Of a stretch of DNA of 64,000 nt, positions 22,168 to 52,114 are shown in pieces (within the stretch, counting starts at the first letter, position 1; the number at the start of each line of letters is the position of its first letter). Below the pieces are notes generated by a model that worked only from the letters and a program-made list of their open reading frames with translations, was not told where the DNA came from and ran no database searches. Position numbers and translations under genes: made by a program. Source of the DNA: Candidatus Poribacteria bacterium (GTDB taxonomy: Bacteria; Poribacteria; WGA-4E; PCPOR2b); contig OZ242315.1 of the NCBI GenBank assembly GCA_965207975.1, forward strand, positions 5,975,197-6,039,196, in the 5' to 3' direction.

Positions 22168-22212
22168 ATTTCCCCGCCATAGCCTCGCGTCCGGTCAAAG
22201 CTACGGGAGAAT

Positions 22213-23119: not shown

Positions 23120-23131
23120 AAGGCCTCACCT

Positions 23132-30354: not shown

Positions 30355-31887
30355 TTGCTCATGCTAACTTTCTTCCTGATATTCGTTGTTCTACTGATTA
30401 ACCTGTTCGTTTACGGCTTGGATAGCCCACAGAACTACGGTGTTGTCTCGCATCTGTACTATGGGGTCATCATCCTCGCGGGGATATACGACAATCGTCG
30501 TGGGCAGTATCTACTGCTTGCGTGCACGACGCTAGCCAATTGGATACATGCTGGGATTTATTATGAGCAGATCCATTTGGGCGTGGTTGCAATTTTATAT
30601 CCTATCATCGCGTATTTCATTGTTCGCACCATCCAGTTATTCAAGGCACAACGCGCCACTACGGAAGCGCAGCTTCAGCAGATAGATCAAGCCAACACGG
30701 ATTTGGAAAAACGGGTGCGAGATCTATCTACCCTTTTTGAAGTTGGTGATACAGCAAACACCGCTCTGGAATTAGATGAACTGTTCCAAAAGATTATCAA
30801 GACGCTTGCCAACCGGATGGGAGTATACCGGGGTGCCCTGAGAATTTGGAAGGGTGGCGAGCCGGTCAAAGAGGTCGAGGCAGTTTTTGGGTTGACAGAG
30901 GCGGAGCTCCGGCGCGGCACGGACAGTCAAATTGATCTTATCCAACAACAGGTACTCCAATCTGGGCAACCGATTGGTGTGCCGCACAGTCGCACGCCCC
31001 TTCAGCAGATGGAGTTTCCAAATGCGAAATCGGTGCAGTCTAAAGATCCGATAGCTTTCTGGTGTGTCCCGGTGGTGGTGGATGAACAGGTAATTGGTAC
31101 GCTGACAATTGATAAAGCATCGGACGAATTTTCGATTGAGGACGATATTCGTATTTTGACGATTATCGCTGCCATTGTGGCACAGCGCGTTAAGATTCAG
31201 CAGATGATCGACTCGCTGGTGCAATCCGAACGACTCGCAACGCTTGGCAAACTTGCGACGACGGTTGCCCACGAGGTGAGAAATCCACTGGGCGGGATCC
31301 GCGGTGCAGCGCAGCTGCTCCAATTTGAAGGCGAATCGAATTCAGAGATTCAAGAGTATATTCAGGTCATTATCAGAGAGGTGGATCGGTTGAATCGTGT
31401 GGTTGAGCAGCTACTTGTGTCCGGCAACCCACGGACCGCTGGTGTCAAGTTAGGTAGTATTAGCGACTTAATCGACAATAGCCTCTCAATCTGTCAGCCG
31501 GAGTTAGATCGGGACAATATCCGTGTTGAAAAGTGTTTTGCTGACGATTGTCCGTTGATTTCCGTGAATGACGACGGGATAACGCAGGTATTGCTGAACC
31601 TATTTCGTAACGCAATTGAATCGATGGAAGATGGGGGTATCTTGACGATTCAAACCACCTATAATTCCGCGATTCAGATTGTTCAAATTTATATCACGGA
31701 TACCGGGCGGGGTATACCGCCGGATGTTGCCTCACGTTTGTTCGATCCGTTTTACACAACGAAACAGAAAGGGACGGGGCTTGGGCTTGCGATTAGCCAG
31801 CAAATCGTTGAGGAGCACGGTGGCACTATTGAAGTTGATATAACAGAAACTCCAGGGGCAACGTTTGTTGTTACATTGCTGGTTTGA
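30355..31887 (+). CDS. Sensor histidine kinase (N-terminal TM segments, GAF-like domain, HisKA, HATPase_c)
   Basis: H-box ATTVAHEVRNPLGGI; N/G boxes ...LLNLFRNAIES..., DTGRGIP, GTGLGLAISQQIVEEHGG. Confidence 0.8.
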   Translation: MLMLTFFLIFVVLLINLFVYGLDSPQNYGVVSHLYYGVIILAGIYDNRRGQYLLLACTTLANWIHAGIYYEQIHLGVVAILYPIIAYFIVRTIQLFKAQRATTEAQLQQIDQANTDLEKRVRDLSTLFEVGDTANTALELDELFQKIIKTLANRMGVYRGALRIWKGGEPVKEVEAVFGLTEAELRRGTDSQIDLIQQQVLQSGQPIGVPHSRTPLQQMEFPNAKSVQSKDPIAFWCVPVVVDEQVIGTLTIDKASDEFSIEDDIRILTIIAAIVAQRVKIQQMIDSLVQSERLATLGKLATTVAHEVRNPLGGIRGAAQLLQFEGESNSEIQEYIQVIIREVDRLNRVVEQLLVSGNPRTAGVKLGSISDLIDNSLSICQPELDRDNIRVEKCFADDCPLISVNDDGITQVLLNLFRNAIESMEDGGILTIQTTYNSAIQIVQIYITDTGRGIPPDVASRLFDPFYTTKQKGTGLGLAISQQIVEEHGGTIEVDITETPGATFVVTLLV

Positions 31888-32786: not shown

Positions 32787-32857
32787 ACACCGTGATTGGT
32801 ATTGGTGCTGCTTTTGTATCCGCCAGTTTTGGTGAGGACAACTATCATTAGATCTCT

Positions 32858-34312
32858 ATGACACACACAATTCTTATTGCTGACGACGACGATAGCATCC
32901 GCTTTGTTTTGGAGAAGGCTCTTCAGAAGGAAGGGTATCACACATTTTCCGCGCGAAACGGGAAAGAAACGGTTGATCTTCTCCGCTCAGAAGCGATTGA
33001 CACGATTTTCCTCGATATTTTTATGCCTGATGTCAACGGGTTAGATCTGATTGAAGAGCTTCAGGAGATCAATAAAGCTGCATCAATTATTATTATCACC
33101 GCTCACGGGACAACGCAAACGGCGATTGAAGCTGCAAAGCGACACGCTTATGACTACGTGACCAAGCCTTTTGATCTCCAAGAGATTATACCTTTGGTGT
33201 CCCGTGCGGTATATGCTGCGGATCAAACAAAGGCGGCACTGGCGGAAGATTCGCGACCAGAAGATAGTGTTGTGCCCCAAAACGGGGAGGAGGTGGGCAC
33301 TCAGATTGTAGGTGAGAGCGATGCGATGCACACAATCTACTTGACCATCGGACGGGCGGCGATCAGCGACGAAACGGTTCTCATTATGGGAGAGAGTGGC
33401 ACAGGTAAGGAATCAATCGCCAAAGCGATTCACCAGAATAGCAAGAGAGCGGAAGAGGAGTTTGTGGTGGTGGATTGTAGCGCGATTCCCTCGGACTTGA
33501 TTGAAAGTGCACTCTTTGGGCATGTTAAAGGGGCGTATACGGGTGCCGATACGGCACGCCAGGGGAAATTTGAGCAGGCGGACCGGGGAACGATTTTTCT
33601 GGACGAGGTTGGTGAATTGCCGATAGAGGTGCAGATGAAACTGCTGCGTGTTCTGCAAGAGCGGGAGGTCGAGCCGATTGGGTCAAATGAGATTCGCAAG
33701 GTTGATGTGCGGGTGGTTGCTGCGACAAATCGACGGCTTGATTTGGCAATTCAGGACGGATCGTTTCGGGAAGATCTGTTTTATCGGCTCAATGTGGTGC
33801 CAATCTTTTTGCCTCCGTTGCGTGAGCGGAAAGAGGATATCCCTGATCTCGTGGATTTTTTTATGTCCCGTTATGCTCAGGACTACGGTCAGCCTAAAGG
33901 GACAATTTCGCCGGAGGCGTTCAAGCTGCTGATGGTTTATGATTGGCCCGGAAACGTCCGCGAACTTGAAAACAGCTTGAAGCGTGCGCTCGTTATGTGT
34001 GCTGGCCAGGTCCTCCTCCTGGAACACTTCCCGGAGCTTTCTGGCAGCGCAGTTCCCTCTGTTACGAAGGCACCGACAGGGTTCGAGAGTCGCCTTGCTT
34101 CGCTTATGTCAGAGCGTGTGGATGAACTTATCGAATCTGGCACCTCCTCGGGATCACTTCATGCAGAGATTCGTGTTGCTGTTGAGAAGCCGCTTTTTGA
34201 GTCTATTCTCCAGCGGACCAGCTGGAATCGTAGGAAGGCGGCTGAGATTCTTGGAATTAATCGGAATACACTCCATTCTAAGATGGAGGAGTATGGGATT
34301 CAAAGGCGTTAG
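32858..34312 (+). CDS. Sigma-54-dependent response regulator (NtrC/Fis family: REC, AAA+ sigma-54 activator, HTH)
   Basis: REC domain ILIADDDDSIRFVL...DIFMPDVNGLDL; Walker A GESGTGKE; GAFTGA-like GAYTGA; C-terminal HTH AAEILGINRNTLHSKMEEYGI. Confidence 0.85.
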   Translation: MTHTILIADDDDSIRFVLEKALQKEGYHTFSARNGKETVDLLRSEAIDTIFLDIFMPDVNGLDLIEELQEINKAASIIIITAHGTTQTAIEAAKRHAYDYVTKPFDLQEIIPLVSRAVYAADQTKAALAEDSRPEDSVVPQNGEEVGTQIVGESDAMHTIYLTIGRAAISDETVLIMGESGTGKESIAKAIHQNSKRAEEEFVVVDCSAIPSDLIESALFGHVKGAYTGADTARQGKFEQADRGTIFLDEVGELPIEVQMKLLRVLQEREVEPIGSNEIRKVDVRVVAATNRRLDLAIQDGSFREDLFYRLNVVPIFLPPLRERKEDIPDLVDFFMSRYAQDYGQPKGTISPEAFKLLMVYDWPGNVRELENSLKRALVMCAGQVLLLEHFPELSGSAVPSVTKAPTGFESRLASLMSERVDELIESGTSSGSLHAEIRVAVEKPLFESILQRTSWNRRKAAEILGINRNTLHSKMEEYGIQRR

Positions 34313-37118: not shown

Positions 37119-37772
37119 AATGGGCATATCCTGTAGGATTGTATTCAGTATGCCATAAAATCATGTCCAAGTCTATATTTTCTTGTGAACCAAAGTCTTT
37201 AGATTACACCGTTAGCTTACCCATTTTTGACAAAGTAGGGATAGTAGAGACTGCAACTAGCGCACCATATCGCTCCAGTCGGCAGAGTTATTTTTTTGGA
37301 CGGAGGCTTTTTTCGTTGCATCATACCAGAAAACGTCAGCTTTTTGATTTTTCTGGCAAAATAACGCAAGTTGTTAGCCTCTGTTGACATTTATGTGAGG
37401 TGTGTCCTTAATTCGCCGAAAAACACCTAATAGTAGGGGCGAGGTTTCCTCGCCCAACGGGTTGGTGTTCAACCTATAAGTGGGTATTGAGTTACACACA
37501 TGTCGCCCCGCTGGGGCTTGGGCGTTGGTCAATTTGTTGTGCTTCTATACACATATCGCCTCTCTGGAGCTTTGAGGGTCAAACCATGAGCCCACCACTA
37601 CCAACTATCAGCGTGAAATAAGCAGTTTGACTAACTGGCATACGAAGGTTATACTACTGAGACGTGCTGTCAAATGTCAACACGCCCAGCAACGTGTGCT
37701 AAATTTAATGTAAAACAGATTGGAGAATGTCAAAAGTGTTACGGTGTATCTGCACAGCCCAGAGGAGGAGTT

Positions 37773-40700
37773 ATGATGAACTACAAGCAGAAATTAGGCT
37801 ACATTCGACAAAACGGAGGGCTTATGAAACAGCAATCTTTCTTATTTCAGATCAAAAAGTCGATTCAGGCTTTACCGATAGTGCTGGCACTTATTGCAGT
37901 GTTGGTATCTATTCCATCAGGGGTGTATGCAAAAATGGGCGCAAGACAAGAGCTTCAACGGAAAGCAGCCGCGACACTGCAGCGTATTAAGTCCGCTTCA
38001 GCCACCGGAGTTCGTGTTCGCTGGCATCGGGACAGAGGGACGGTACGGAGCCTCTACAATCTAACCTTACCTGCACCAGTGGGGACGCCTGAAACATCAG
38101 CGCGTCAATGCCTTAGCGATTACTGCGACTTGTTTGCGATGACCGATCCGACGGTCGAGTTACGGTTAAAAGTTGTCCAAAACAGTTTAACGGGCAGGCA
38201 TATCCGATTCCACCAATACCATAGAGGCATTGAAGTGTATGGCGCATCAATCTCGGTCCATATCAATCACAGTGGTCAGATACGGGTTATCCACAACAAC
38301 TACTTCCCCCAAATCGACATCAGCACATCGGCATCGCTTTCAGCGGAACAGGCGATAAGCGTCGCTCTCCCCGAGTCGGGTGCGATTGATTTACGGAAGC
38401 CGTCGCAGGCGGGGTTGGCCATTTTCCCTGTTCGCAATGGTGCGTACCACCTCGCTTACCGTGTGATAGTGCACCTCCGTCGCCCGTTAGCGGGTTGGGA
38501 GTATATCATAGATGCCCACACCGGTGCGCCGTTACATCGACGAAGTGTGCTGAGGTCTGTGGACGGGCAGGGTCGTGTATTTAACCCGAACCCTGTTGTC
38601 GCACTTAAAGATGTGACACTGATGGATCAGGACGATTCAGCGGAGGCGATCCCCGATGAAGCCTACACCGACGTGATACTCCCCGAACTGGACGGGACCG
38701 GTTTTCTGGATGGGCGATACGTGAGCACTATATTGACCCCCGATCGTGCGAACGAACCGACATTGGAATACAACTACCTGCGCGACGATCCCCGATTCGA
38801 GGAGGTAATGGTGTACTATCACGTCGATGCGGTGGGCCGTTATCTGAAAGGGCTCGGCTTCGATTTCGTGGACGATTGGCAGATCCCCACCAATGTCCAC
38901 GTTGATGACTCAAACAATGCGTTCTACGACGACAGCGACGGCTCAATCAACTTCGGGGATGGCGGAGTCGATACCGCCGAAGACGCCGAAGTGATTATCC
39001 ACGAATACGGTCATGCGATTCTGGATCGACAGGTGCCCGGCATCTACATCGGTGAAGGGGGTGCGATACACGAAGGGTTTAGCGATTTTCTGGCAGCCAG
39101 TTTTTACAGTGCTGTCAGCGATGGCTTCGGTGATACGATTGTTTTTGACTGGGCAGGTTTAGAAGCTGCTGAGTATTTAACCCGTCCCGTAGATGGTCAC
39201 AAGCACTACCCCGAAGATCTGGTAGGCGCGCCACACGACGATGGCGAGATGTGGTCCGCATCATTATGGGAGCTTTTCCAAGCACTCGGACGCGACGGGT
39301 CGATACGGTTGGTTATTGAGAGCCATTTCTATCTATCGTCCGACGCAGAATTTGTCGATGGTGCATCCGCGCTCTTTATGGCGGATCAGGAACTAAACGG
39401 CGGTGTGAATGGCGACCTGATTTTGTCGGTCATGGAGAACCGTGGCCTCTTGACACCGCCAAAATTGGCATCCGATACCTTTGAGCCTAACGACACAGCG
39501 GACACCGCTTCCGTGGTGGAACTTCCGTTTATCAACGGAGAGGTGTCTGTCCATACAGGTGACGATGCGGATCACTATCAGTTCCAGTTAATCGAGCCGA
39601 TGCAGGTTGGGGTGGGCATAGATTTCCAACCGATCTACGGAGAGTTGATGCTCACCTTGACCGGACCCACGGGTGTAGCACTGGTTAACTTTGAGACGAA
39701 AGCGATCACATCGCTCGAACTGGAGCCGGGCGATTATCTAATTGCTGTTTCAGGTGTCAACGGTGCGACCAACGATTATCAGCTCGCGCTCATCATCGAC
39801 AACCACGGCGATACCCCGGAATCAGCAACCGCTGTAGCGATTGGTGATACGGTAGAGAGCTTCATCGAGTTCAGCGGTGATACTGATTTCTTTGCATTTG
39901 AAGGTGAACAAGGAACGCTGATTGACATCACTATTGAGACGGACGACTCCGATCTCGATTCGCTCCTTGTCGTTTATGGACCCGACGGTGTGCTATTTGC
40001 CAAAAACGATGATGTTGTCTCCCTGTTTGACCCGTTTGCCGAACTCAATCCGAGTGGGATAGATTCCCGTGTGAATGAAGAACTGCCCGCCAATGGGACG
40101 TATCTGCTCGCAGTGAGTAACATCGCCCCGCCCAAACTGAACGCCCCCTTTGGTGGGGTCAACTATTCTTATACGCTGTCGATAACAGAAAATGTTGACG
40201 ACCATGCGCCGTGCGGTAGCGGCGAGGAGACGCCGTTGGTTTGGGGCGAACCAATAACGGGAGTGATCAATCTATTTACCGATCCAGAGAATCCCTTTGG
40301 CGAAGATGCCGACGGGTTTCGGTTCGATGCCGCTGCGGACGATGTCATCAGCTTGCACCTTGCCGTCGAAAGCAGCAACGAGTTTGCATTTACAACCCTC
40401 CGCCTGTTAGATGAATTGGGTAATGAGTTACTCTCTACCCAGCCCCCTTTCGATGGCTCAGACGTGCGGATTGAGGGCTTTGAAATTGGTGTTGATGGTG
40501 TCTATTGTGTCGAAGTCAGCGGTAGGATTTCCTTGACAGACGAGGATTACACCTATACGCTCACACTCTCTGAAGGCGAACTCCAGGACGATGATCACGA
40601 TGCTCGGTGGGGAGATCCGATGCCTATCACATCGGGTGTGCCGATTGAGGGGGTCATCAGTTTTGACGGGGATGCCGATGCGTTCCAGTTTACCGCTACA

Positions 40701-41837
40701 GCGGGTGCGGTCATTACGTTAAATGTGGAGCTCAACTCCCCAGCCCCGTTCTTCGGTGTGATGGCGACCTTGTATGACTCCGATTTAGAGCGGTTGACGG
40801 AGTCTCTCTGGAGCGGGTTTGATGAACCGGAGGGTGATATTTTCGATTTTGATGAGCTACGAAACGGATTTACGATCCCTGAGACCGGCACTTACTATGT
40901 CGAGGTCGCCTCTTTTTTCGGAGAGAGTGACGAGAATTCTAGCTACACGCTCACCTTAACGATCGAAGGCGGAACGGAACTCGGGCTGTTTCCGCCCTAT
41001 GATGTGAACCAAGATGGCAAGGTGAACATCTTTGATCTGGTGCTTGTTGGTCAACATTTCGGCGAGCAATTCATTAACGCCACGCCCACCGCTGATTTTG
41101 GACAGCTCCGCTCGGTCTCGGCCGAAGGGGAGTTGCGGCTTTTGATGATGCCGAGTGCAACCGATAGACGACAATTGACGGTCTCAATTGACACCACAGC
41201 GATTGCTGATCTTTACGGCTACCATTTCTCAATCCAGTATGATTCGACGGTGTTGGAACTCCTGACCGCCTCACCGAGCCTGCAGCTGGCAGATGCGCTG
41301 CAACAGAGTTATTGGAATGTCGCTCAACATGGGACACAACTGGAACTGATACAGACGCGCCAGGGCGCAACCGAAGGTGTCGCGGCTGAAGGGGCACTGG
41401 CGACACTGGTTTTTGAGGTCAAAGAGACCCAAGTGCCGACCCCGCCTGTCCAGTTGGTTTCGGTGCAACTGGCGGATTCGCTGACACGCGCGATTCTTGT
41501 CGATCTGGTTACGGAACGGGTCTTGATGACGGAGCTGTTCCCTGATAAGCCGATGTTAATGCAAAACTACCCTAACCCGTTTAACCCCGAAACATGGATC
41601 CCATATCAACTCTCTACCGATTCGGAGGTAGTTCTGTCAATTTACGATTCAAACGGTGAGCCTGTCCGTCGATTCGATGTGGGGTATCAGCACGTCGGGA
41701 CATACGCCACTCGTGGTCGGGCGGTCTACTGGAATGGCAGAAATGAGTTTGGTGAGCCTGTGGTAAGTGGTATATATTTCTATCACCTCTCTGCTGGCGA
41801 TTATTCCGCCACACGGAAAATGGCTATCGTCAAATAG
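37773..41837 (+). CDS. Large secreted thermolysin/fungalysin-like (M4/M36-type) zinc metalloprotease with FTP/PepSY propeptide, multiple PPC-like domains, dockerin-type repeat and a T9SS C-terminal sorting domain
   Basis: HEYGHAILD (HExxH) followed by GAIHEGFSDF (E-x-x-S-D third ligand). N-terminal signal peptide after MMNYKQK... Repeated xPNDTADTA...GDDADHYQF modules; YDVNQDGKVNIFDLVLVGQHFG; C-terminal LMQNYPNPFNPETWIPYQL...GIYFYHLSAGDYSATRKMAIVK. The start is uncertain (37773 or 37824). Confidence 0.7.
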   Translation: MMNYKQKLGYIRQNGGLMKQQSFLFQIKKSIQALPIVLALIAVLVSIPSGVYAKMGARQELQRKAAATLQRIKSASATGVRVRWHRDRGTVRSLYNLTLPAPVGTPETSARQCLSDYCDLFAMTDPTVELRLKVVQNSLTGRHIRFHQYHRGIEVYGASISVHINHSGQIRVIHNNYFPQIDISTSASLSAEQAISVALPESGAIDLRKPSQAGLAIFPVRNGAYHLAYRVIVHLRRPLAGWEYIIDAHTGAPLHRRSVLRSVDGQGRVFNPNPVVALKDVTLMDQDDSAEAIPDEAYTDVILPELDGTGFLDGRYVSTILTPDRANEPTLEYNYLRDDPRFEEVMVYYHVDAVGRYLKGLGFDFVDDWQIPTNVHVDDSNNAFYDDSDGSINFGDGGVDTAEDAEVIIHEYGHAILDRQVPGIYIGEGGAIHEGFSDFLAASFYSAVSDGFGDTIVFDWAGLEAAEYLTRPVDGHKHYPEDLVGAPHDDGEMWSASLWELFQALGRDGSIRLVIESHFYLSSDAEFVDGASALFMADQELNGGVNGDLILSVMENRGLLTPPKLASDTFEPNDTADTASVVELPFINGEVSVHTGDDADHYQFQLIEPMQVGVGIDFQPIYGELMLTLTGPTGVALVNFETKAITSLELEPGDYLIAVSGVNGATNDYQLALIIDNHGDTPESATAVAIGDTVESFIEFSGDTDFFAFEGEQGTLIDITIETDDSDLDSLLVVYGPDGVLFAKNDDVVSLFDPFAELNPSGIDSRVNEELPANGTYLLAVSNIAPPKLNAPFGGVNYSYTLSITENVDDHAPCGSGEETPLVWGEPITGVINLFTDPENPFGEDADGFRFDAAADDVISLHLAVESSNEFAFTTLRLLDELGNELLSTQPPFDGSDVRIEGFEIGVDGVYCVEVSGRISLTDEDYTYTLTLSEGELQDDDHDARWGDPMPITSGVPIEGVISFDGDADAFQFTATAGAVITLNVELNSPAPFFGVMATLYDSDLERLTESLWSGFDEPEGDIFDFDELRNGFTIPETGTYYVEVASFFGESDENSSYTLTLTIEGGTELGLFPPYDVNQDGKVNIFDLVLVGQHFGEQFINATPTADFGQLRSVSAEGELRLLMMPSATDRRQLTVSIDTTAIADLYGYHFSIQYDSTVLELLTASPSLQLADALQQSYWNVAQHGTQLELIQTRQGATEGVAAEGALATLVFEVKETQVPTPPVQLVSVQLADSLTRAILVDLVTERVLMTELFPDKPMLMQNYPNPFNPETWIPYQLSTDSEVVLSIYDSNGEPVRRFDVGYQHVGTYATRGRAVYWNGRNEFGEPVVSGIYFYHLSAGDYSATRKMAIVK

Positions 41838-41936
41838 TATCAAATGACCCTATGATGGTTGGAATGCCGATGAATCCCCGGTCACGGGACAGGCAAGACA
41901 GTCCGTCCCGTGACCGGGGATATACCGTCTACAACT

Positions 41937-42911
41937 TTAATGGCGGGTGGACTGTAAACGCGCCTTTACAGTCCCTTGCTTCAAGGTTCCCCAGAGTGTT
42001 GCCTGCGTGTGTGTGTTTGGCGAAACGGATAACCCCGATGGTGCCCATGCAGGAGAAAATTCCACGCCTGGATCTTGTGTCAATTGTTGGATCTTCCCGT
42101 CCGCTACACGGATGAGATGGATGTCTTTGTTACCGCCTTGAGTTGACACATAGGCGATCCATTGTCCGTCGGGCGACTCGGCAGGTTCTTCGCAGGCTTG
42201 CGGGGCGTTTACCAACTTCCGGACATTTCTTCCGTTGACATCTATAGCAAACAGGGTGGGTATCTCTACATTGTCGAGCATATCGCTAGAGAAGTAAATT
42301 TCTTTGCCGTTAGCTGCCCAAGTGGGGTTTGCCGCAGATACCTGCGTGAGGGCACGCTGTTTTTTGCCATTTGCATTCATCAGATGGATGGCACCGAAAC
42401 CGTCCAGTGTGGTACGGAACGCGATCCACTGCCCGTCCGGCGACCACGCCGGTGTTGAATTGTGTCCACCCTTGTTTGTGAGTTGTTGTGCCTTCTTGCC
42501 GCTTGGGTTCATTATGTAGATGTCGGTATCTGCTGCATGTTCTCTATGTTGGTTGGAGGCAAATGCAATCCAGCGTCCATCGGGTGACCAAGCGGGATCT
42601 GCGTCCGTTGCGCGATTGTTTGTTAGCCGTCGAGGCTCCTTGTTTTTCATCTCCATCACGTAAATCTCTGGATTCCCATCCCTGTGTGAAACATAGGCAA
42701 CAGCACTGCCATCAGGTGCCCACGTCGGGGAAGAGTCCTCCGCCGGATGGTTTGTTAAGTTAACGGGATTCTTGCGATTGATATCCATGATGTAGATTTC
42801 GAGATTTCCGGTGAGATCAGCGGTGAAGGAAATCGTCTTATTGCCCCAAGAGTTTATAGTCAACAGACTGCTCGCTATCAGCAACATTTTCCAAACTAAT
42901 TTTTGTTTCAT
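41937..42911 (-). CDS. Secreted PD40 (TolB-like) beta-propeller repeat protein
   Basis: Signal peptide MKQKLVWKMLLIASSLLTINS; repeated ...SPxWSPDGxxIAFxS...IYxM units. Confidence 0.75.
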   Translation of the reverse strand: MKQKLVWKMLLIASSLLTINSWGNKTISFTADLTGNLEIYIMDINRKNPVNLTNHPAEDSSPTWAPDGSAVAYVSHRDGNPEIYVMEMKNKEPRRLTNNRATDADPAWSPDGRWIAFASNQHREHAADTDIYIMNPSGKKAQQLTNKGGHNSTPAWSPDGQWIAFRTTLDGFGAIHLMNANGKKQRALTQVSAANPTWAANGKEIYFSSDMLDNVEIPTLFAIDVNGRNVRKLVNAPQACEEPAESPDGQWIAYVSTQGGNKDIHLIRVADGKIQQLTQDPGVEFSPAWAPSGLSVSPNTHTQATLWGTLKQGTVKARLQSTRH

Positions 42912-43055
42912 GGATAAGTCTTCCCTGTTTTCTTGCACTTTTCGGTCAGTTGAGAGGTACTGCTATACGCATGTCAGCGCGGGGAAACCAGATGCCCTGC
43001 CCCGATAAATCGGGATGCAAACACCTACAATTAGCTGCGTAAGTCCTATGCTATG

Positions 43056-45074
43056 TTAAAACGTGACCGAAATACCCAATGTTGGCAGAATCGGCAGCAT
43101 CGGCTCTTCATCAATCTCACATCCGAGCAGTGCCCCTGTTTCCTCGTCTCGCCTCTCACTGAACGCATATTGGTCAACGTTAGAGCGATTGTATAAATTT
43201 AAGATTTGGAAATACCAGGTGAGCTCCCACCGGCTGTATGGATTCCGTTTCGTAAACCGAAAATCGAGACTGTGATAGGGTGGTAGCCGCTCTGAATGCG
43301 TCTCCCCAAACTGGCGGTCACACGCGCTGCTACCTCCCGGCTGCGAAACCAGCACATGCGTCAACGGTGTTCTTGGTTCGCCGGTATGGAAACGCCAGGT
43401 AAGGTAGAGATGCCATCCGCGTGAAAGTTGGTGACTGCTGTTGAGCGCGATAGAATGCCGTCGGTCGGACTGCCGAAAAAATGTCTCACCGCCTGCACTT
43501 TCTTTTGCATCGGCGTACGCATAGCCGAATCCCCACGTGAGCCGATTTGAAACTGTATGTGTTACGAAAACATCCACCCCTTTTGCGTTGCCGGATTCTG
43601 GGGGAACGAAAATCTGAGTCTGTCGTCCGAACTCCCGGAGCCGCCCTGAGAGATTGTCCAATGTTTTGTAATACGCCTCCAAACGGAGCAAGAAATTAGC
43701 GTTTGGATGGTATTCACCGCCGAGAATGTAATGAATCGCTTGTTCAGCACGTCCGACGGTTTGAACGTTATCCTCCACAGGAATATTCATCATGGGAATG
43801 GGTTGGTGATAGATCCCCCACGCACCACGCAGCACCAGTTTCTCTGTTGGGCGTACTGCAAGTGCAACCCGAGGTCCGATCTCATAGCGCTGGATACCGG
43901 TCGCGCGATAGTCCTGAAACCCGTACCGTCCTCCCACATTGAGTGCGAGTTTTGGATGTAACTGCCACTCGTCTTGAAGAAACGCCTTGATTTCACTGCC
44001 GCTGTCTTCAAAATCTGCGAGGATTCGTGTGTACTGATCTATTCCGGGCTGTCGTTCTCGGACATCGTAATCGTATTGTGCTGTTGTCAAACGCCATTCT
44101 ATTCCGCTGCGAAACAGATGTTTATCTAGGAAACCGGCTGTGACTTCCGTTTTGGTGCCGAAGAAACGGAACGAGCGGACATCAGAATTTGCCACTCCGG
44201 TCCGACGATCGTGCGCTGCGGTTCCCCCAAAAACGAACACATCGGACCAGTTCGCCGTACCGAAGTGATGCCGCCACCGCGTCCAAACGGTTAAATTATC
44301 GTAGCGCGAATCTAAGTTGTTGTCGGGATCTCCTTGCCGAATCCGATTCTTATCCCATCCATAAAGTCCGTTAAGCGTGAGTGTATCTTTCTGTGTTGGT
44401 GCGTAGGTCAGTTTGCCATAGAGATCCGCGTATTGTGGTTTGTAGTCCTCGTCGAAATCAATCATTGCAAGGATCAGATCAACGTAACCCCGGCGTGCTG
44501 ACAGTCGCCATGACCCTTTTTCTGATAAGGGTCCCTCTACCATCGTGGTTGTATTGATAAGGTCAAGTCCGAAATTAGCAGAAACTTTTTCAATGTCTCC
44601 TTCTTTTGTTGTGATGTCAAACACACCGGACATTTTATCCCCGTACTCCGCTGGGAAACCACCCATCAACAATTCGACGCGCTGGATTAAATCGAGCCCG
44701 ACGAGCGAAACCGCGCCGCCAAAGTCTTGTAAATGGTATGGATTGAAGAGTTCCATCCCGTCTAATCTCACCAAAATGTCGTCCTTTTCGCCGCCGCGTA
44801 CGCTGAATCGTGCGCTGTAATCGCTTGCAACGATCCCCGGAAAAATATGTGCAGCCCGCATCGCATCGTTGCCAATCAGCGGAAACCGCTCAATTCGTTG
44901 CTTTGAGAGGGATAGCTTTGAAGGTGTCTCATCGTCAATTGCGAACCGGCCGGGTGTCACCACAATTTCGTCGAGTTGAACAGGTTCTGTGTCATCCTGT
45001 GCTGAAACGCTGAGGCAGCTTGCAATCCCAAAGAGTAGAAGAGGTAGACAGATTGAGTGGATGGATTTGACCAT
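43056..45074 (-). CDS. TonB-dependent outer-membrane receptor
   Basis: Signal peptide; plug-domain motifs (DEIVVTPGRF, RFSVRGG); 22-strand-sized beta-rich body; C-terminal aromatic residue (...GISVTF). Start placed at ATG 45074 (GAGGAT RBS) rather than GTG 45089. Confidence 0.75.
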   Translation of the reverse strand: MVKSIHSICLPLLLFGIASCLSVSAQDDTEPVQLDEIVVTPGRFAIDDETPSKLSLSKQRIERFPLIGNDAMRAAHIFPGIVASDYSARFSVRGGEKDDILVRLDGMELFNPYHLQDFGGAVSLVGLDLIQRVELLMGGFPAEYGDKMSGVFDITTKEGDIEKVSANFGLDLINTTTMVEGPLSEKGSWRLSARRGYVDLILAMIDFDEDYKPQYADLYGKLTYAPTQKDTLTLNGLYGWDKNRIRQGDPDNNLDSRYDNLTVWTRWRHHFGTANWSDVFVFGGTAAHDRRTGVANSDVRSFRFFGTKTEVTAGFLDKHLFRSGIEWRLTTAQYDYDVRERQPGIDQYTRILADFEDSGSEIKAFLQDEWQLHPKLALNVGGRYGFQDYRATGIQRYEIGPRVALAVRPTEKLVLRGAWGIYHQPIPMMNIPVEDNVQTVGRAEQAIHYILGGEYHPNANFLLRLEAYYKTLDNLSGRLREFGRQTQIFVPPESGNAKGVDVFVTHTVSNRLTWGFGYAYADAKESAGGETFFRQSDRRHSIALNSSHQLSRGWHLYLTWRFHTGEPRTPLTHVLVSQPGGSSACDRQFGETHSERLPPYHSLDFRFTKRNPYSRWELTWYFQILNLYNRSNVDQYAFSERRDEETGALLGCEIDEEPMLPILPTLGISVTF

Positions 45075-45234
45075 GAATTTGATCCTCACAATGTTTAAGT
45101 GTTTCTTCGATTATAGCACATTGTAGGCAAACAGCTAATGACCTGAATATATAGTAATCCTTGACCGGAGCGTAATTGAGGGGGAGATGGGTGTGTGCGA
45201 GATTCATCGCAGCGGTTTTCTCAATGCCTGACAA

Positions 45235-47553
45235 TTAAAATCGGTTATCAAGACTGACAATCACGTTGAACCCGGGCGCGTTGATACCGGAGCCGTGCTC
45301 GCGATACCGCTTATCGAGCAGGTTCTCAAGGGCGAGGGTGAGTCGATTGTATTGGGTCACCTGAACGCCGCCGCGCAAGTTAAGCGTTACCCAACCAGGT
45401 GAACCTTGTCCAATCGCTGCGCCATTGGCATCAAACTGGACCTCACTTGTGTCGCGGGTGGTTCCCGGAATCCGTGGGTCTCGAATATCGCTCCGATTTA
45501 ACCGTCTCTGCTCGGTTGCACCACGGACAAAGAATTCTGCCCAAAATCGTTGGGCAGGGGGCTCCCAGCGTATGCCAACCATACCGTTGAGAGGTGGTTC
45601 TCGACGGATCCGTTCTTCCCACGGCTGGTCCGGATCGGGTGCTGCGCCGTTGATGGTCAGCACCTTTCCACGGGTGAACATCGCATTACCGTAAAGGGAT
45701 AAACCGTTTTGAATCGGAATTGGAACCATTCCAGCAAACTCAATGCCTTGGATTTGCACTTCATCCACGTTGTCAAATACATAGACATCAACGCCCGGAT
45801 TGTTTTTCTGGATTTCCTGAATCAGGCTTGGAAGCGATTCTCCAGCGTAGGCATCTTCGACCGGGACACGGGTGACCAGATCGCTGACGCGACCATGGAA
45901 AAGGGTCAATGAACCGATGACCCACGGATAACGCGCCTTAAAGCCCCCTTCCGCTGTCCATCCTCTCTCCGATTTGAGGTCGGGCGATGGGGAGTCGATA
46001 CCTTCATTGGTGACCTCGACAGCGGTGGTATCGTTCAAAGAAGGCGCGCGGAATGATGTGGCAAAATTGGCGACAGCGTTCAACCCGTCAGTGACACTTA
46101 TGACCGCACCTGCGCTGCCGGTCCATGCGTTCCCGGCTTGGTTAAAATCCTTAAACTGCGGATCACGTATTGATAGGTCTGCGTGCGTGTTGTAAAGTGT
46201 ATATCGTCCACCGAGCGTCAGTTCGAGGCGTTCGTGCAGTTCGATTTCATCCTGAACGTAGAGATTTGCATCCCAGAATTGCGAACCGTTGATAAACCTA
46301 CCTTTGGTGTCGTCCACCTTTTCAGCACCGGTATTGATGTCGGTTTTGATTGTTTGGCTGGCAAGGGTATCAAGATAGAATTCACCACCTGCAACGACGC
46401 GTTGATTCGGCAGCGACGAACTGGTTGCCTGTGCGCTAAACCCCACTGTGTTGACGGTATCGAACCGCTCGCGACGTTCGGTTGCATCGCGTTTGAGTTC
46501 ATTTCGTCCTTCTTTCTGACGATGGAATGAGGTGGTGAATCGAATCCGGTCGATCGCCGTGGTTAGAGGTTTGGAGAGGTAGGTGGCGTAGAATAGATCT
46601 CGATCTTGGGGTTGAAAGAAAAACTCGTCAAACTCGCGCGGTGCAATCTTATCGTAGCGAGGGGTTTGCGGTTGTCGCCAGAGTTGGTAGGCAAGGTTGA
46701 CTGTGCTGGTGTCATTGAGTTTGTAAGTGAGTTTAGCGTTGCCGTCGTAGGCGTTCCACCCAAGTGGTCCTTCAGAATCAATCAGCCATTGGTCGGGGAC
46801 ATCTTTGGGAGGCCCATCGGAGACTTGCACATCCTTCGGTTTGTCGGTGACAATCTCAAATTTACGGTTCTTGTAGTGAAGGTCATAGCCGCTGCCCGGA
46901 TTAATATTGCCGAACCATCGCGCAGAGGCACCGACCGAAAATCCGAGTTGCTTTTGGCTGCCGACTATCTCAAGCCGTCCGAGCCGCTCGGCACTTCCCG
47001 AAGCGAATCGGGTGAAAGCACGGGGTTGGATGTTCCAATTATCTGTCGCGTTATCGCTAATGGTGGCTTTGGTGAACATACTGATGACCCCACCCATCGC
47101 ACCGCTGCCGTATAACATTGAACCGGCACCGCGCAGCACTTCAACCCGGTCGAGGTTGTCCGGGCTGGTCGTTGCCAAATACTGATTGGGACCGGAGCGG
47201 AAAGTGGAATTGTTGAGTCGAACACCATCAATCGCAAGGAAGGCTTGATAACCGGTAAGCCCACGCAGCAAGGGTGAACCTTGACCGACCGTTGTTTGCT
47301 GTGCCCAGACTCCCACTGTTTCACGCAGGATTCGGGGTGTCGTTGGAGCATTCATGCGCTCAATCTGCTCACGGTCGATGACGGAGACCGCGTTCGGTGT
47401 TCGGAAGGTATCTTTTTCGACGCGGGTTATGACAGTGACTTCCTCAAGCTCAACAGGAGGCGATTCTGCTTGGTTTCCTTGCGAGTACGTGAGATTAATG
47501 CTCCCTAGAAAAAGACTTAAACATAGCCATAGCTGTTTCAGTTTGACTTTCAT
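45235..47553 (-). CDS. TonB-dependent outer-membrane receptor
   Basis: Signal peptide MKVKLKQLWLCLSLFLGSINLTYSQG; LEEVTVITRVEK..., GSPLLRGLTG plug motifs; C-terminal ...SLDNRF. Start at ATG 47553 with AAGGAGA RBS. Confidence 0.75.
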   Translation of the reverse strand: MKVKLKQLWLCLSLFLGSINLTYSQGNQAESPPVELEEVTVITRVEKDTFRTPNAVSVIDREQIERMNAPTTPRILRETVGVWAQQTTVGQGSPLLRGLTGYQAFLAIDGVRLNNSTFRSGPNQYLATTSPDNLDRVEVLRGAGSMLYGSGAMGGVISMFTKATISDNATDNWNIQPRAFTRFASGSAERLGRLEIVGSQKQLGFSVGASARWFGNINPGSGYDLHYKNRKFEIVTDKPKDVQVSDGPPKDVPDQWLIDSEGPLGWNAYDGNAKLTYKLNDTSTVNLAYQLWRQPQTPRYDKIAPREFDEFFFQPQDRDLFYATYLSKPLTTAIDRIRFTTSFHRQKEGRNELKRDATERRERFDTVNTVGFSAQATSSSLPNQRVVAGGEFYLDTLASQTIKTDINTGAEKVDDTKGRFINGSQFWDANLYVQDEIELHERLELTLGGRYTLYNTHADLSIRDPQFKDFNQAGNAWTGSAGAVISVTDGLNAVANFATSFRAPSLNDTTAVEVTNEGIDSPSPDLKSERGWTAEGGFKARYPWVIGSLTLFHGRVSDLVTRVPVEDAYAGESLPSLIQEIQKNNPGVDVYVFDNVDEVQIQGIEFAGMVPIPIQNGLSLYGNAMFTRGKVLTINGAAPDPDQPWEERIRREPPLNGMVGIRWEPPAQRFWAEFFVRGATEQRRLNRSDIRDPRIPGTTRDTSEVQFDANGAAIGQGSPGWVTLNLRGGVQVTQYNRLTLALENLLDKRYREHGSGINAPGFNVIVSLDNRF

Positions 47554-47617
47554 CGTTTCTCCTTTCTCGGTATGATTTTTAGAAGATTGAATTTTTGAGA
47601 CCGTGTATTGACTTAAA

Positions 47618-47634
47618 GGCAATTTTTGTGCCAA
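47618..47634 (-). promoter_or_regulatory. Sigma-54 (RpoN) -24/-12 promoter TTGGCAC-N5-TTGCC, reading into the TonB-dependent receptor / PD40 gene string
   Basis: On the minus strand, TTGGCACAAAAATTGCC exactly fits the TGGCAC-N5-TTGCW consensus, about 65 nt upstream of the receptor ATG. Confidence 0.65.
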
Positions 47635-47825
47635 AGAGGCTTAAGGTCAAGATTGCGTCTGTAGGCGGATTCCTGACTAGTTTTATCCGACGAGACGCTG
47701 CTTATTGTTCAATTTCTGAACAGTTGTGTTTGTCTTTTGGACAGTTGTGTTTATTATAGAAGCACAGTTCGATCTGGGGTATAATAACAGGAATGATAGG
47801 TGGCTTCTGAGTGCCCCGTGTTTTT

Positions 47826-47856: not shown

Positions 47857-47965
47857 AAAACGTGTCTCCAACTGATTGCAATGCCAAATTAGGTTGACAT
47901 ATTCCCAACCTAGTGGCACAATAATTACCAAGACTTTTTTGGATGAAAGGAAAGTAATTGAAATA

Positions 47966-50900
47966 ATGAAGCGAGTAGGTCTATGCAGGGTACAAGCCGT
48001 TGTATTTAACCTATTACTGCTGCCATTTTTTATGATGGTAGGGTGCACAACAATGGTCCCTGATAATCCCAATATGCCGTTGGAGGACTTCGATTCAGGG
48101 TCTCGCGTTGAAAAGACATTACGGGTGGAACGGAAGCTCGTTAGTAACGAGGTCAACTGTATTGCTGCTGACTTGCACAATGTATGGTTTGCAACGCAAG
48201 CCGGTGTTTCACATTGGGAGCGTGACCAAGACGAATGGTTCCACTACACAATGGAAGATGGGCTGTCTAACGATGTCGTAAACGCCGTCGCAATTGATGG
48301 ACAATGGGTCTGGTTCGCCACCGAGGAGGGGGTGAGTCGCTACGACACGCAGACGAACACCTTTTCGACCTACCGAACCATTGATGGGTTGGCGAGTGAT
48401 CAGGTGTCGTCGATTGCGGTGGATGGGAACTATGTTTGGTTTGGAACATCTAACGGGCTAAATCGTTATGACAAAACCATTGACAGTTGGGCGGTGCGTA
48501 CCCGTAAGGATGGTCTGGTCAGCAAGGTGATTACAACGATTGCGGTTGAACCCGAGTATGTGTGGGTTGGTACGGATAGGGAGATAAATCCGGATCCCCA
48601 TGGCTGGGAGGATGACCCTCGGTTCAGCAAAGGTGGGGTGAGCCGATACCATCGAGACACCGATTCTTGGAATAATTATAAAAAATCAGATGGCTTGATA
48701 GACAATGAGATTGCTACCATCGCGGTGGATGAGAATAGTGTTTGGTTTGGAACGCAAGACGAAGGCGTGAGTCAGTACAATCAGGTTGATCAGGCTTTCA
48801 TCAAAACATTTACGAAGACTGATCTGCTCAAGAGCAATATGATTTCCTGTATCCGGGCGGATGGGTTTCAGGTATGGTTTGGTACTGCGAATGCCGGTGT
48901 GCATCGTTTCATCAAGCCGGTCAACACTTGGGTGCATTACACCAAAGCAGATGGATTGGCAAGCAATCATGTGAGTTGGATCGAGACACAAGGAAATGAT
49001 GTTTGGTTTGCGAGCAAAGAGGATGGGGTGAGTCGTTTTGATAAGGTAACCGGTGAGTGGACGCTCTACAAGCAGGCAGATTTTCTGGCGGCTAACGATG
49101 TTCGGGATATAACCCGCGATGCGGCTGGCAATCTTTGGCTGGCGACGGTATCGGGAATTTCGATTTACGAACCCCAAACGCGCAGTTGGGAAATTATCTC
49201 TAAAGAGGATGGACTTCCGAGCCCGTATATTACGAGGATAGATATTGCGTCTCAATTGCGTGAATCGGGACAAAGCGACGTGATTGAAATATCGAGCGGT
49301 GGGCTGACTGGTGCACAGGTTTGGATCGGTACAGATAGAGGACTAGGCGCCCGACCGTACTCCGGTGGGGAATGGGCGTTCTATTCTCCTCCGAAATCCA
49401 CGACGGCTGGAGAGGCTTTTGTGACGGCGGTTAAGGCCAATGGAGATATACTCTGGCTCGGTACAAGTTTGGGCCCCGCGATGTATGACACAACTTCTGA
49501 GCAGTGGAGGCAGCTTGAGACACCGGGAGATCACTCAAATGCGGTTGTGTTATCTGTACTCGTCCACGATGAGATGGTCTGGTTTGGTGGAGCGGCGGGT
49601 GTTTGGCGATATTCTATTGTGGATCAGAAGGTACATCGTGTTGCCAAAGGACTGCCTGACACCTATGTTAATGTGCTATTTTCCACAGAGGATAGCCTTT
49701 GGGCGGGGACACGGCAAGGACTTGCTCGCTATGATGTTGGCAAGGAACGTTGGGTGCCGATGTCGTTCAACGCACAATTGCCTGTTTCTAATGTTACTGC
49801 ACTCGATTTCCGAGATGGGATTCTTTGGATCGGCACACCACAAGGTTTGGGAAGTTATACGACTGCTTCAAAGGCTTGGAGTCCTATTAAGAATGTGCCG
49901 TATAACATCCGGGACATCCTGTGTGATGCGGATGAAACACTTTGGTTGGCGACAGCGGTCGGTCTTGTTGAATATCGCCTATCAGATGGCGGCAAGGTGC
50001 TGCATCAATCACGCCCGGTACGTGAGCCGTTTCTTGAAACGAAGGTTTCAAATATCAAATTTGATGGGGATTACATCTGGTTCAACAACTGGGCTTCTTC
50101 ACCGAACGGTGGGCTTGTACGGTTTCATCGCCCTACGGGAGCCTGGCAGCGTTTTACGCGCTTAGATATTCTCCGGTCAACTCAGAAAAGGTCTATGACC
50201 ACAGTGCGTTGGAGCTATGTGGATACGGATGCGGTCTGGTTCACCACGGACTACGGGGTCCTGCGGTACGATAAAATGGCGGATACGTGGCAACATTTTA
50301 CGATAAAGGATGGTCTTCCTACTAACGATTTAGACAGAATTGCCGTGAGCGAACACAGCGTCTGGGTGAGTCCAATGATTGGTGTCGAATTGAGCCATTA
50401 TAGTAAAAAGACTGGAAAATGGACTGCAATTTCGCCTAGTAAAGAGATGCAAATTGAGCGGTTGAAATCACTGGCGGTTGATGGGCCGGAGGTCTGGTTT
50501 GGGTCGGGACGTGGACTTCACCGTTATAATGAATTTACCGGTAAATGGCGTGATTTCACGCCGAGGGACGGACTCGCCGGCAGAGGTGCTGAGTGGATTA
50601 CCGCGGACGAGGATTTCATTTGGGTTGCACGCTCGGAGTGGGACAGAGACAGTAACCGTCCGCTGTCACGATACAATAAAAAAACGGAGAGGTGGGACAC
50701 GTTTTCAACGAGTGACGTGCTGGCGTCGGACACCATTAGGCGAATTATTGCCACAAAGGACGATGTTTGGATACTCTACAGGCCTTGGACGAAGAAGGGG
50801 GTTACCCGATACGATAGACGCACCGGGGAGTGGACGACAATCAAGTCTGGGCGTGGAACGCTTGAGTTAGCTACCGACGACGACTACCTCTGGTTAGCTG

Positions 50901-52114
50901 TACCCAATAATGGGCTCAGACGGTTCCATTTCGCATCTGGGACTTGGACGGTGTTCAGAGATCTCAAAGGGTTGCTACATAACCATGTGGATGAGTATGG
51001 GCTTGCCGTTGATGATAGGTATGTATGGGTGGGCACGTTGCGGGGACTTTCTCGCTATGACAAACAGAAGGAATCTTGGACCTCCTTCACAGCGATGCCA
51101 ACCCTTTCGGGACGCACCATCCGGACGGTGGACACGGATGAGCGTTTTGTCTGGGTCGGTACTGACAACGGTTTGTCGCGTTATGATAAAGAATTGGGCA
51201 CTTGGAGGCAGTATCAGCAAGAGGGTGGTTCTGAGGAGATAGCGACCCACGGTGGCCATTGGCATCGATGGCGTCCCAAGAGGAAAGATACACTGTCCGA
51301 TAATTCGGTGAGTTCAATTGTGGTTGATGACCAGTACGTCTGGGTCGGAACTCGAGATGGCGCGAACCGTTTTGATAAACTCGCCCTACGCTGGGATCAG
51401 TATAAAACCGGGCATGGCTTGCCTGCTAATAATGTGACTTCTGTCAGTAACGATGGCAATAATATTTGGGTGGGCACCAACTCCGGGATTGGCAAGTATC
51501 CTCGAACCGCAGATGACCTCAACGCTTGGATCGCTTATACCTCCGGCACGGAGATTCAACCCGCCTCTGTCTCAAAAGAGTTTGCGGAGTCGTTGGTTAC
51601 AGATGAGATCTGGTGTATCGCTAGCAGCAAGAAGAATGTTTGGGTCGGTACACGACGTGGTGTGAGCAAATATGATATCGGCAAGGACACGTGGAAAACT
51701 ATCACAACAGAAGATGGCTTGGCGAGTGATGAAATCAGTTGTATTGCTATTGATGGGGAGCGTGTTTGGTTCGGTACGGATCGGGGTGCGACTGTCTACA
51801 ATGAGGAGACAGAGGCTTGGACTTCCTATACAACGGAAGATGGACTGGCTAGCAACAAGGTGACTTCGATTGATGTTGATGGCACAGAGGTGTGGATCGG
51901 GACGTATAATGCAGGGGTAAGCCGATTCGATCCGTCAGTAAATAGCTGGATAACTTATACGCGAGCAGAGGGCTTGGCTCATAATGGGATTCTGTCTATC
52001 TCAGTAGGAGATACTTATGTGTGGTTCGGGACCTATCGTGGCTTGAGCCGTTTTGACAAACATACGGGCATCTGGACAACCTTCACAGAATCCTACGGAC
52101 CTGAGGATCTGTGA
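47966..52114 (+). CDS. Very large (1383 aa) lipoprotein built entirely of two-component-regulator-propeller (Reg_prop / Y_Y_Y-type) repeats, with no kinase or receiver domain
   Basis: N-terminal MKRVGLCRVQAVVFNLLLLPFFMMVGC; more than 20 repeats of VWFGTxxGxSRYDxxTxxWTxYTxxDGLxSNxV. The track ORF starts at 47876; ATG 47966 is preferred. Confidence 0.7.
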   Translation: MKRVGLCRVQAVVFNLLLLPFFMMVGCTTMVPDNPNMPLEDFDSGSRVEKTLRVERKLVSNEVNCIAADLHNVWFATQAGVSHWERDQDEWFHYTMEDGLSNDVVNAVAIDGQWVWFATEEGVSRYDTQTNTFSTYRTIDGLASDQVSSIAVDGNYVWFGTSNGLNRYDKTIDSWAVRTRKDGLVSKVITTIAVEPEYVWVGTDREINPDPHGWEDDPRFSKGGVSRYHRDTDSWNNYKKSDGLIDNEIATIAVDENSVWFGTQDEGVSQYNQVDQAFIKTFTKTDLLKSNMISCIRADGFQVWFGTANAGVHRFIKPVNTWVHYTKADGLASNHVSWIETQGNDVWFASKEDGVSRFDKVTGEWTLYKQADFLAANDVRDITRDAAGNLWLATVSGISIYEPQTRSWEIISKEDGLPSPYITRIDIASQLRESGQSDVIEISSGGLTGAQVWIGTDRGLGARPYSGGEWAFYSPPKSTTAGEAFVTAVKANGDILWLGTSLGPAMYDTTSEQWRQLETPGDHSNAVVLSVLVHDEMVWFGGAAGVWRYSIVDQKVHRVAKGLPDTYVNVLFSTEDSLWAGTRQGLARYDVGKERWVPMSFNAQLPVSNVTALDFRDGILWIGTPQGLGSYTTASKAWSPIKNVPYNIRDILCDADETLWLATAVGLVEYRLSDGGKVLHQSRPVREPFLETKVSNIKFDGDYIWFNNWASSPNGGLVRFHRPTGAWQRFTRLDILRSTQKRSMTTVRWSYVDTDAVWFTTDYGVLRYDKMADTWQHFTIKDGLPTNDLDRIAVSEHSVWVSPMIGVELSHYSKKTGKWTAISPSKEMQIERLKSLAVDGPEVWFGSGRGLHRYNEFTGKWRDFTPRDGLAGRGAEWITADEDFIWVARSEWDRDSNRPLSRYNKKTERWDTFSTSDVLASDTIRRIIATKDDVWILYRPWTKKGVTRYDRRTGEWTTIKSGRGTLELATDDDYLWLAVPNNGLRRFHFASGTWTVFRDLKGLLHNHVDEYGLAVDDRYVWVGTLRGLSRYDKQKESWTSFTAMPTLSGRTIRTVDTDERFVWVGTDNGLSRYDKELGTWRQYQQEGGSEEIATHGGHWHRWRPKRKDTLSDNSVSSIVVDDQYVWVGTRDGANRFDKLALRWDQYKTGHGLPANNVTSVSNDGNNIWVGTNSGIGKYPRTADDLNAWIAYTSGTEIQPASVSKEFAESLVTDEIWCIASSKKNVWVGTRRGVSKYDIGKDTWKTITTEDGLASDEISCIAIDGERVWFGTDRGATVYNEETEAWTSYTTEDGLASNKVTSIDVDGTEVWIGTYNAGVSRFDPSVNSWITYTRAEGLAHNGILSISVGDTYVWFGTYRGLSRFDKHTGIWTTFTESYGPEDL

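Follow-up and report, generated by a model that had tools for sequence, protein, structure and literature searches.

A gene for a TonB-dependent receptor of Candidatus Poribacteria, a sponge symbiont, is likely to be expressed from a sigma-54 promoter that an enhancer-binding protein (EBP) would activate from two dyad sites located further upstream. The gene lies at 45235..47553 on the minus strand of the 64,000-nt window of OZ242315.1 analysed here, to which all coordinates refer, and is the first of two receptor genes in a minus-strand cluster; the predicted promoter core, at 47619..47633 on the same strand, matches the consensus far beyond chance expectation. As an architecture of EBP and sigma-54 this is standard, newly documented in an uncultivated phylum, and its value is the access it gives to an unstudied phylum, not a new principle.

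The predicted sigma-54 promoter

The sequence TTGGCACAAAAATTGCC at 47618-47634 of the minus strand had been noted in a preliminary description of this DNA as a near-perfect -24/-12 element about 65 nt upstream of the first receptor ATG, and both observations hold, with 64 nt separating the end of the motif from the ATG at 47553. Its core, TGGCACAAAAATTGC, is an exact match to TGGCAC-N5-TTGC, in which the -24 GG falls at 47632/47631 and the -12 GC at 47620/47619, so that the two doublets stand 10 nt apart; all 10 core bases of TGGCAC-N5-TTGCW are matched, and the base after TTGC is C instead of A or T. The exact core occurs twice on the two strands of the window, compared with 0.14 matches expected from shuffles. 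Given the usual distance from -12 to +1, transcription is predicted to start at about 47607 and to yield a leader of about 54 nt. The ATG at 47553 is preceded by AGGAG and aligns with the starts of all orthologues, which led to the rejection of the TTG at 47634, the start of the mechanically called open reading frame (ORF).

The element is conserved among relatives. A genome scan with one genome per species yielded 17 Candidatus Poribacteria loci encoding the first receptor at 85-90% identity, and a -24/-12 element lies upstream of the orthologous receptor in every one of these genomes. Within the -24 TTTGGCA and the -12 TTGC, 10 of 11 columns are invariant across the 17 genomes (the exception is one base in one genome), whereas the five-base spacer drifts, reading AAAAA, AAATT, AGATT, GGAAA, GAAAC or AGAAT. 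Conserved -24/-12 contacts around a varying spacer are what is expected of a sigma-54 promoter and not of an overlapping sigma-70 promoter. The latter could be drawn as TTGACC-17-AAAAAT (47650-47622), with the conserved GGCA..TGCC acting as an operator for a dimeric repressor or activator: this sigma-70-like match (9/12) overlaps the site, GGCAC..TTGCC reads as weakly palindromic, and the two neighbouring promoters of the locus are sigma-70-type. However, the -35 TTGACC is not conserved in a consistent form, the conserved bases (TTTGGCA, TTGC) are asymmetric and correspond to sigma-54 contacts, and the element recurs together with its upstream dyad beside EBP genes, with helical phasing, in unrelated contigs (see below). 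We regard an ordinary sigma-70 promoter at this position as very unlikely.

Still less credit can be given to the view that the motif arose by chance or binds sigma-54 non-productively, without effect on expression, an explanation that we consider scarcely credible. Many intragenic sigma-54 sites have been reported in E. coli, to which such a non-productive site may be likened, and the other good matches in the window look non-functional, that at 22592-22606 having no gene downstream and that at 10362-10377 overlapping a ribosome-binding site. The receptor site, however, is placed upstream of a gene, is conserved not only in 17/17 genomes but also in orthologues down to 58% protein identity, and is accompanied by a co-conserved activator site at fixed spacing.

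The predicted activator sites

In the preliminary description inverted repeats were not obvious by eye upstream of the promoter. Scanning of this region uncovered a perfect dyad, TGTTCA-GAAAT-TGAACA, at 47706..47722, together with a weaker copy, TGTCCA-AAAGA-CAAACA, at 47727..47743, which forms with it a direct repeat (D1) of 21-nt spacing. The distal site thus lies 21 bp upstream of the proximal dyad and on the same helix face; with the start taken as about 47607, the two centres fall at about -107 and -128, within the range typical of upstream activator sequences (80-150 bp upstream). Both are conserved. In the proximal dyad the half-sites are kept and the central 5 nt vary among relatives, and in the distal site ACTGTCCA and AAACA are kept. 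Between the proximal dyad and TGGCA lie 72 nt in 15/17 loci, with 71 and 75 nt in one locus each. These dyads are therefore placed as would be expected of a candidate EBP binding site, from which an activator could reach the promoter by looping.

The combination is confined to this promoter within the window. The exact TGTTCA-N5-TGAACA has its single match at 47706-47722, and when a relaxed promoter scan is combined with a relaxed dyad scan both elements are found at the receptor promoter only. A search of the window for further copies of the dyad returned one near match, with one mismatch, at 34688-34704, which was rejected as an activator site because it lies inside a EutN coding sequence and no promoter follows it. 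Likewise, each 14-kb orthologous locus contains a single dyad-plus-promoter pair.

A footprint alignment of the 256 nt upstream of the receptor, comprising the window and 16 loci (L003, which carries an insertion, was checked separately; comparison loci and contigs bear L numbers), places these elements among the few conserved segments. Only 21% of the columns are invariant, and the blocks conserved at 88% or more are TATTATA, ACTGTCCA, AAACA, CTGT, TTGAACA, TTTGGCA, TTGC, AATTCAAT, the Shine-Dalgarno sequence and the ATG. As these blocks correspond to the two dyads, the promoter elements, the Shine-Dalgarno sequence and the ATG, plus two short blocks to which no role is assigned, the footprint counts in favor of a sigma-54 promoter. 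Of the two short blocks, TATTATA (47780..47786; TATAAT on the plus strand) is located about 40 nt upstream of the distal dyad and has no convincing -35 partner by sequence reading, and AATTCAAT (47586..47593, minus strand) lies inside the predicted leader.

Transcription units of the receptor locus

The preliminary description had assigned to this promoter a string of three genes, the two receptors and a gene for a PD40 protein, and suggested that the activator of this single sigma-54 operon may be an NtrC-like regulator, encoded 13 kb away with its own kinase. The part concerning the first receptor stands; that concerning the second receptor and the PD40 gene is not supported, since the second receptor has a conserved promoter of its own and the two receptor genes are separated in 8/13 relatives. 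The second, divergent receptor (43056..45074, minus strand) is preceded by a sigma-70-type promoter at 45110..45138 on the same strand, with a -35 TTAGCT at 45138-45133, a spacer of 17 nt and an extended -10 TGcTATAAT at 45118-45110, the -10 itself (45115-45110) sitting 29 nt before the ATG at 45074. This ATG, behind GAGG, is by sequence reading the true start and was preferred over the GTG at 45089. The pattern TT(A/G)GCT-17-TGcTATAAT is kept in the window and in 12/13 relatives, including those with as much as 5.8 kb of other genes upstream.

Indeed, in those 8 relatives the two receptors are set apart by 0.7-5.8 kb of other DNA, which in six of them measures 2.4-5.8 kb and carries co-directional genes. 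The inter-receptor genes, present in 7/17 relatives, encode propeller proteins of the WD40 and BNR/sortilin type and STAS proteins, classes met again below, plus small cytochrome-c-domain proteins. A single operon would be contiguous in relatives and free of internal promoters, and the cluster is neither. Thus, the second receptor and the PD40 gene (41937..42911, minus strand), the last of the cluster, probably form a separate unit transcribed from its own sigma-70-type promoter, leaving the sigma-54 promoter to drive the first receptor only. The absence of a terminator between the receptor genes speaks for the single operon, and in the window read-through from the sigma-54 promoter into the second receptor is possible. 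The PD40 unit would end at a GC-rich 16-bp hairpin (41875..41920, recognized by sequence reading) between the convergent PD40 and M36 peptidase genes, which is likely a two-way terminator.

On the other side of the promoter region, the receptors are divergent from a lipoprotein with propeller domains only, as described earlier and confirmed by Pfam. Its gene (47966..52114, plus strand; 1382 aa, Reg_prop repeats, lipoprotein signal ..MMVGC) is divergent from the first receptor in 17/17 relatives and is followed by a permease gene. It has a sigma-70-type promoter at 47894..47922 on the plus strand (TTGACA, 17 nt, TGgCACAAT; a 10/12 match with TG), whose hexamers are essentially invariant in relatives, one base differing in one genome. 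A sigma-54-like 15-mer at 47914-47928 of the plus strand was set aside as the extended -10 of this promoter: its would-be -12 reads AC instead of the required GC in the window and most relatives, between flanking bases that vary. The earlier designation of this protein as a sensor-like propeller is not borne out, as it carries no signalling domain and is provided with its own sigma-70-type promoter. Over its 1382 aa only Reg_prop repeats and a PorZ-like propeller were found, with no kinase, receiver or DNA-binding domain, and an identity as hybrid two-component sensor was rejected for want of HisKA, HATPase, receiver and DNA-binding domains.

The permease gene downstream of the propeller gene (52243-54516) encodes a 757-aa 'amino acid permease' that scores best with the K-Cl cotransporter family TIGR00930 (263 bits, below cut-off), and its C-terminal ~300 aa, beyond residue ~445, have no Pfam match.

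The NtrC-like regulator and the identity of the activator

A sigma-54 enhancer-binding regulator with its own kinase had been reported at 32858, and Pfam confirms both proteins. The regulator (32858..34312, plus strand) is an NtrC-like EBP with a REC domain, an AAA+ domain containing GAYTGA and a Fis-type helix-turn-helix (LGINRNTLHSK), i.e., a sigma-54 activator of the response-regulator type, and its partner (30355..31887, plus strand) is a GAF-HisKA-HATPase kinase. Equivalence to NtrC (NR-I) was rejected, since the TIGR01818 score of 486.1 bits falls short of the cut-off of 558.6 and the AtoC, ZraR and NtrX models score nearly as high; moreover, the GAF sensor of the kinase sets it apart from NtrB. 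In L142, L144, L145, L147 and L148 the kinase and regulator genes are immediate neighbours. In the window they are separated by a gene with DUF3782 and PDDEXK_10 (31897-32786), which is a single ORF of 309-321 aa in L141 and L143 and is split here into ORFs of 143 and 125 aa; the window copy is thus probably disrupted.

Several observations favor the NtrC-like regulator as the activator of the receptor promoter, and with it the single-operon model. It has all domains of a REC-AAA+-HTH activator, no other EBP is encoded in the window, and in three close relatives its block lies 4-7 kb from the receptor cluster, as measured to the PD40 gene. Classical NtrC sites have a 6-N5-6 geometry, as does the dyad described here. 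Among the EBPs that directly adjoin the same dyad in the metagenome matches listed (see below), the one most similar to the window EBP (42% identity), in L102, has a comparable helix, SRNTLRE.

Nevertheless, proximity was the sole argument originally given for this activator, a weak one that does not extend beyond close relatives. The regulator belongs to a block conserved on its own in Poribacteria (riboflavin genes, a GATase or glutamine amidotransferase gene, the GAF kinase, the EBP, two EutN genes and a rhomboid gene), and the receptor cluster is not found within 8-10 kb of it in four Poribacteria that are more distantly related; a linkage seen only in close relatives reflects local gene order and not a conserved partnership. 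The recognition helices also differ. Among 120 orthologues of the regulator (60-99% identity), 118 share the helix LGINRNTLH, whereas the EBPs beside the dyad in metagenomes have an SR(T/G)(T/A)(L/I)Y helix in 6/7 lineages among the matches listed, including one (L057) that is divergent from a TonB-dependent receptor gene. INRNTLH is thus unlike these SRTTLY-type helices, with the caveat that similarity of EBP sites is not always matched by similarity of their DNA-binding domains (PMC4641369). Finally, neither a dyad nor a conserved sigma-54 site was found near the regulator's own gene, and a sigma-54-like site at 32797, just upstream of it, was rejected as not conserved in six orthologous loci. 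It is therefore doubtful that the window regulator activates the receptor promoter, and the complete model of one operon for both receptors and PD40 under this regulator is unlikely.

Two EutN/CcmL microcompartment vertex genes (34327-34889) directly follow the regulator in the window and in 6/7 orthologous loci that extend past it (L145 is the exception, and L147 ends at the regulator). No shell-protein genes were seen among the window ORFs or in the orthologous regulator loci. Further upstream, a TnpB/IS605 OrfB gene (28491-29627 region) is inserted before the amidotransferase gene, a difference from close relatives.

Recurrence of the module and a possible regulon

Metagenomes were scanned with the pattern dyad + 60-85 nt + TGGCAY-N5-TTGC, and the matches listed contain the dyad-plus-promoter module in more than 120 contigs, compared with a chance expectation roughly estimated at ten or fewer, a value that depends on the size of the collection. 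In the 90 loci left after removal of near-duplicates, the spacings form clusters at 61-63, 71-77 and 81-85 nt and show a periodicity of 10.5-11.5 bp (Rayleigh p<1e-5). Among the matches listed, an EBP gene is found at most 1 kb from the module in at least 28 loci, and within about 330 nt in at least 26, its commonest position being on the same strand and ending 10-330 nt upstream of the dyad. Together, helical phasing and neighbouring EBP genes argue that most of these matches are functional.

The module also accompanies more distant receptors. Orthologues with 73% identity (L062) and 58-61% identity (L092 and L096) keep both dyad and promoter, the spacing between them being shorter by about one helical turn in L092 and L096, whereas their upstream neighbours differ (Band_7, CarboxypepD_reg). 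The retention of dyad and promoter next to different upstream neighbours suggests that the module travels with the receptor gene. In addition, the module is found at 71-nt spacing before other genes in contigs L043/L108, L063/L106 and L075, which are termed Poribacteria-like here because their PD40 protein and methyltransferase are 67% and 86% identical, respectively, to the window counterparts. The products of the genes downstream are propeller proteins of the WD40 and BNR/sortilin type that carry type-IX-like domains at the C terminus, together with a protein bearing a STAS domain. The presence of the same module before secreted beta-propeller genes in these contigs suggests that the receptor is one member of a small regulon.

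Sites of this general kind have been described elsewhere. Kazakov et al. (2015; PMC4641369) report for Desulfovibrio vulgaris a TGT-N11-ACA class of EBP sites, which shares with the dyad the outer TGT/ACA half-sites, their 11-bp separation and a position upstream of sigma-54 promoters. The two differ in phylum, and the extended half-site TGTTCA is defined here from the sequences of Poribacteria and metagenome loci.

A bolder reading, which we advance only tentatively, is that dyad and sigma-54 promoter mark a Poribacteria-wide regulon for surface uptake and secreted propellers that is driven by a host or nutrient signal and whose activator could be the conserved NtrC-like regulator. If that regulator were the activator, nitrogen or glutamine status would be tied to the uptake of host material. 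The association of the dyad with SRTTLY-type helices across unrelated EBP lineages could, if true, provide a recognition rule for EBP targets in uncultured bacteria.

Among the matches listed from sediment metagenomes (L021-L140), the commonest target of the module is a family of secreted proteins of ~200-230 aa, whose genes closely follow that of a 460-aa EBP of the response-regulator type (helix ISRTTLY(S/N)KLKKY). Other metagenome targets comprise major facilitator superfamily (MFS) sugar transporters, FtsX-type permeases, Zn-dehydrogenases and TonB-dependent receptors.

Proposed mechanism and relation to known systems

In the mechanism that we propose, RNA polymerase with sigma-54 would be held as a closed complex on TGGCAC-N5-TTGC (47633-47619), and an EBP would occupy the two 17-bp TGT-N11-ACA dyads on the same helix face, about 107 and 128 bp upstream. 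The EBP would then form an ATPase ring, contact the polymerase through DNA looping and open the promoter, from which a receptor mRNA with a ~54-nt leader would be made. The second receptor and PD40 would be expressed from their own sigma-70-type promoter, with some read-through possible, and the propeller lipoprotein from another promoter of this type.

Four points weigh against this proposal. First, the window does not contain rpoN, and its presence elsewhere in the genome is predicted from the deeply conserved EBP with its intact GAFTGA/GAYTGA loop. Second, no IHF-like site was found between the dyads and the promoter. Third, no terminator was found between the receptor genes in the window, so a longer sigma-54 transcript may exist there. 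Fourth, 'sigma-70-type' denotes for both promoters a match to the general bacterial consensus, from which that of Poribacteria may differ.

The closest known arrangement is that of glnAp2-type NtrC promoters of enteric bacteria, which share the -24/-12 core, tandem 17-bp 6-N5-6 dyads about 100-140 bp upstream and a phase-dependent position of these sites. By this likeness, an activator of the response-regulator type would be expected for the receptor promoter. However, the half-site is TGTTCA here and TGCACC there, the target is an outer-membrane receptor and not a nitrogen-assimilation gene, and the NtrC-like protein of the window scores below the NCBIfam cut-off for NtrC. The usual control of TonB-dependent receptors, i.e., by Fur, by extracytoplasmic function (ECF) sigma and anti-sigma factors or by SusR and hybrid two-component systems, has in common with this locus an inducible uptake gene and a neighbouring surface lipoprotein. 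In contrast to these systems, the receptor has no N-terminal signalling extension according to Pfam, there is no ECF sigma gene nearby, and control by sigma-54 and an EBP is predicted instead.

Literature searches for the half-site sequence, for Poribacteria and sigma-54 and for sigma-54 control of TonB-dependent receptors retrieved no direct precedent. Links between sigma-54 and TonB-related genes were found only as predictions or in regulon surveys, none of them for Poribacteria, and no described promoter or regulon for Poribacteria was found. With its promoter, two activator sites and constant spacing, the module offers a well-defined query by which the regulon could be catalogued from complete Poribacteria chromosomes; it can also be compared with sponge metatranscriptomes and tried in a surrogate host together with candidate activators.

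Products of the cluster and other sites in the window

The first receptor (772 aa) consists of a signal peptide, a Plug domain (Pfam, 1.9e-22) and a barrel (1.5e-38), and the second (672 aa) gives weaker Pfam matches to the same two domains. Both thus match Plug and TonB_dep_Rec_b-barrel, and in both the C-terminal residue is aromatic, as expected of TonB-dependent receptors. No substrate was assigned, given that all NCBIfam matches are below cut-off and that matches in the PDB are restricted to the plug domain. For the first receptor, the haem/haemoglobin/transferrin receptor family scores highest in NCBIfam (192 bits, cut-off 324), and in the search for receptor boxes a FRAP box was present and the NPNL box of haem receptors absent.

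The third product of the cluster is a secreted beta-propeller protein of 324 aa (PD40, 4.6e-53), whose gene start was corrected by sequence reading to the ATG at 42911. It had been called TolB-like; an identity as TolB was rejected, as TIGR02800 scores 207 bits with a cut-off of 343 and the match is limited to positions 202-385, the propeller half of the model, and 'PD40 propeller protein' is the safe name. In the region beyond the hairpin (37674-41837) the window encodes an M36 metallopeptidase of 1387 aa with a type-IX-like tail, in place of which L141-L143 have a 274-aa PhyH gene.

Two further sigma-54-like sites were rejected as functional promoters. Genes are sparse around the second exact TGGCAC-N5-TTGC (22592-22606, minus strand): no ORF lies downstream of it, and it is directed toward an IS630-type transposase gene encoded on the other strand. 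A perfect TGGCAT-N5-TTGCA at 10362-10377 on the plus strand precedes a Zn-dependent dehydrogenase gene by 13 nt (ATG at 10390) and overlaps or abuts the GGAGGA ribosome-binding site of that gene, 2 nt further downstream; the close relative L149 retains it and the homologue L150 does not, nor are the GTTCA repeats found about 100 nt upstream conserved.

The IS630-type transposase gene (~21322-22150) contains an A9 run that suggests a programmed frameshift. Two copies of a ~100-nt repeat are found nearby (~22210-22370 and 23010-23130), each with a hairpin, GGTGCGGT..ACCGCACC, and a shared tail, GTCTATTTATTTTTAG..TCACCATAA, and may represent a small mobile element or one like a repetitive extragenic palindrome (REP-like). 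An Rfam scan of the window gave no match. Short intergenic CCCGAT-N-ATCGGG hairpins are present at 42995-43015 and 22270-22300 of the window and in L008; they recur in the genome and in relatives, and look like a genome-wide repeated palindrome.

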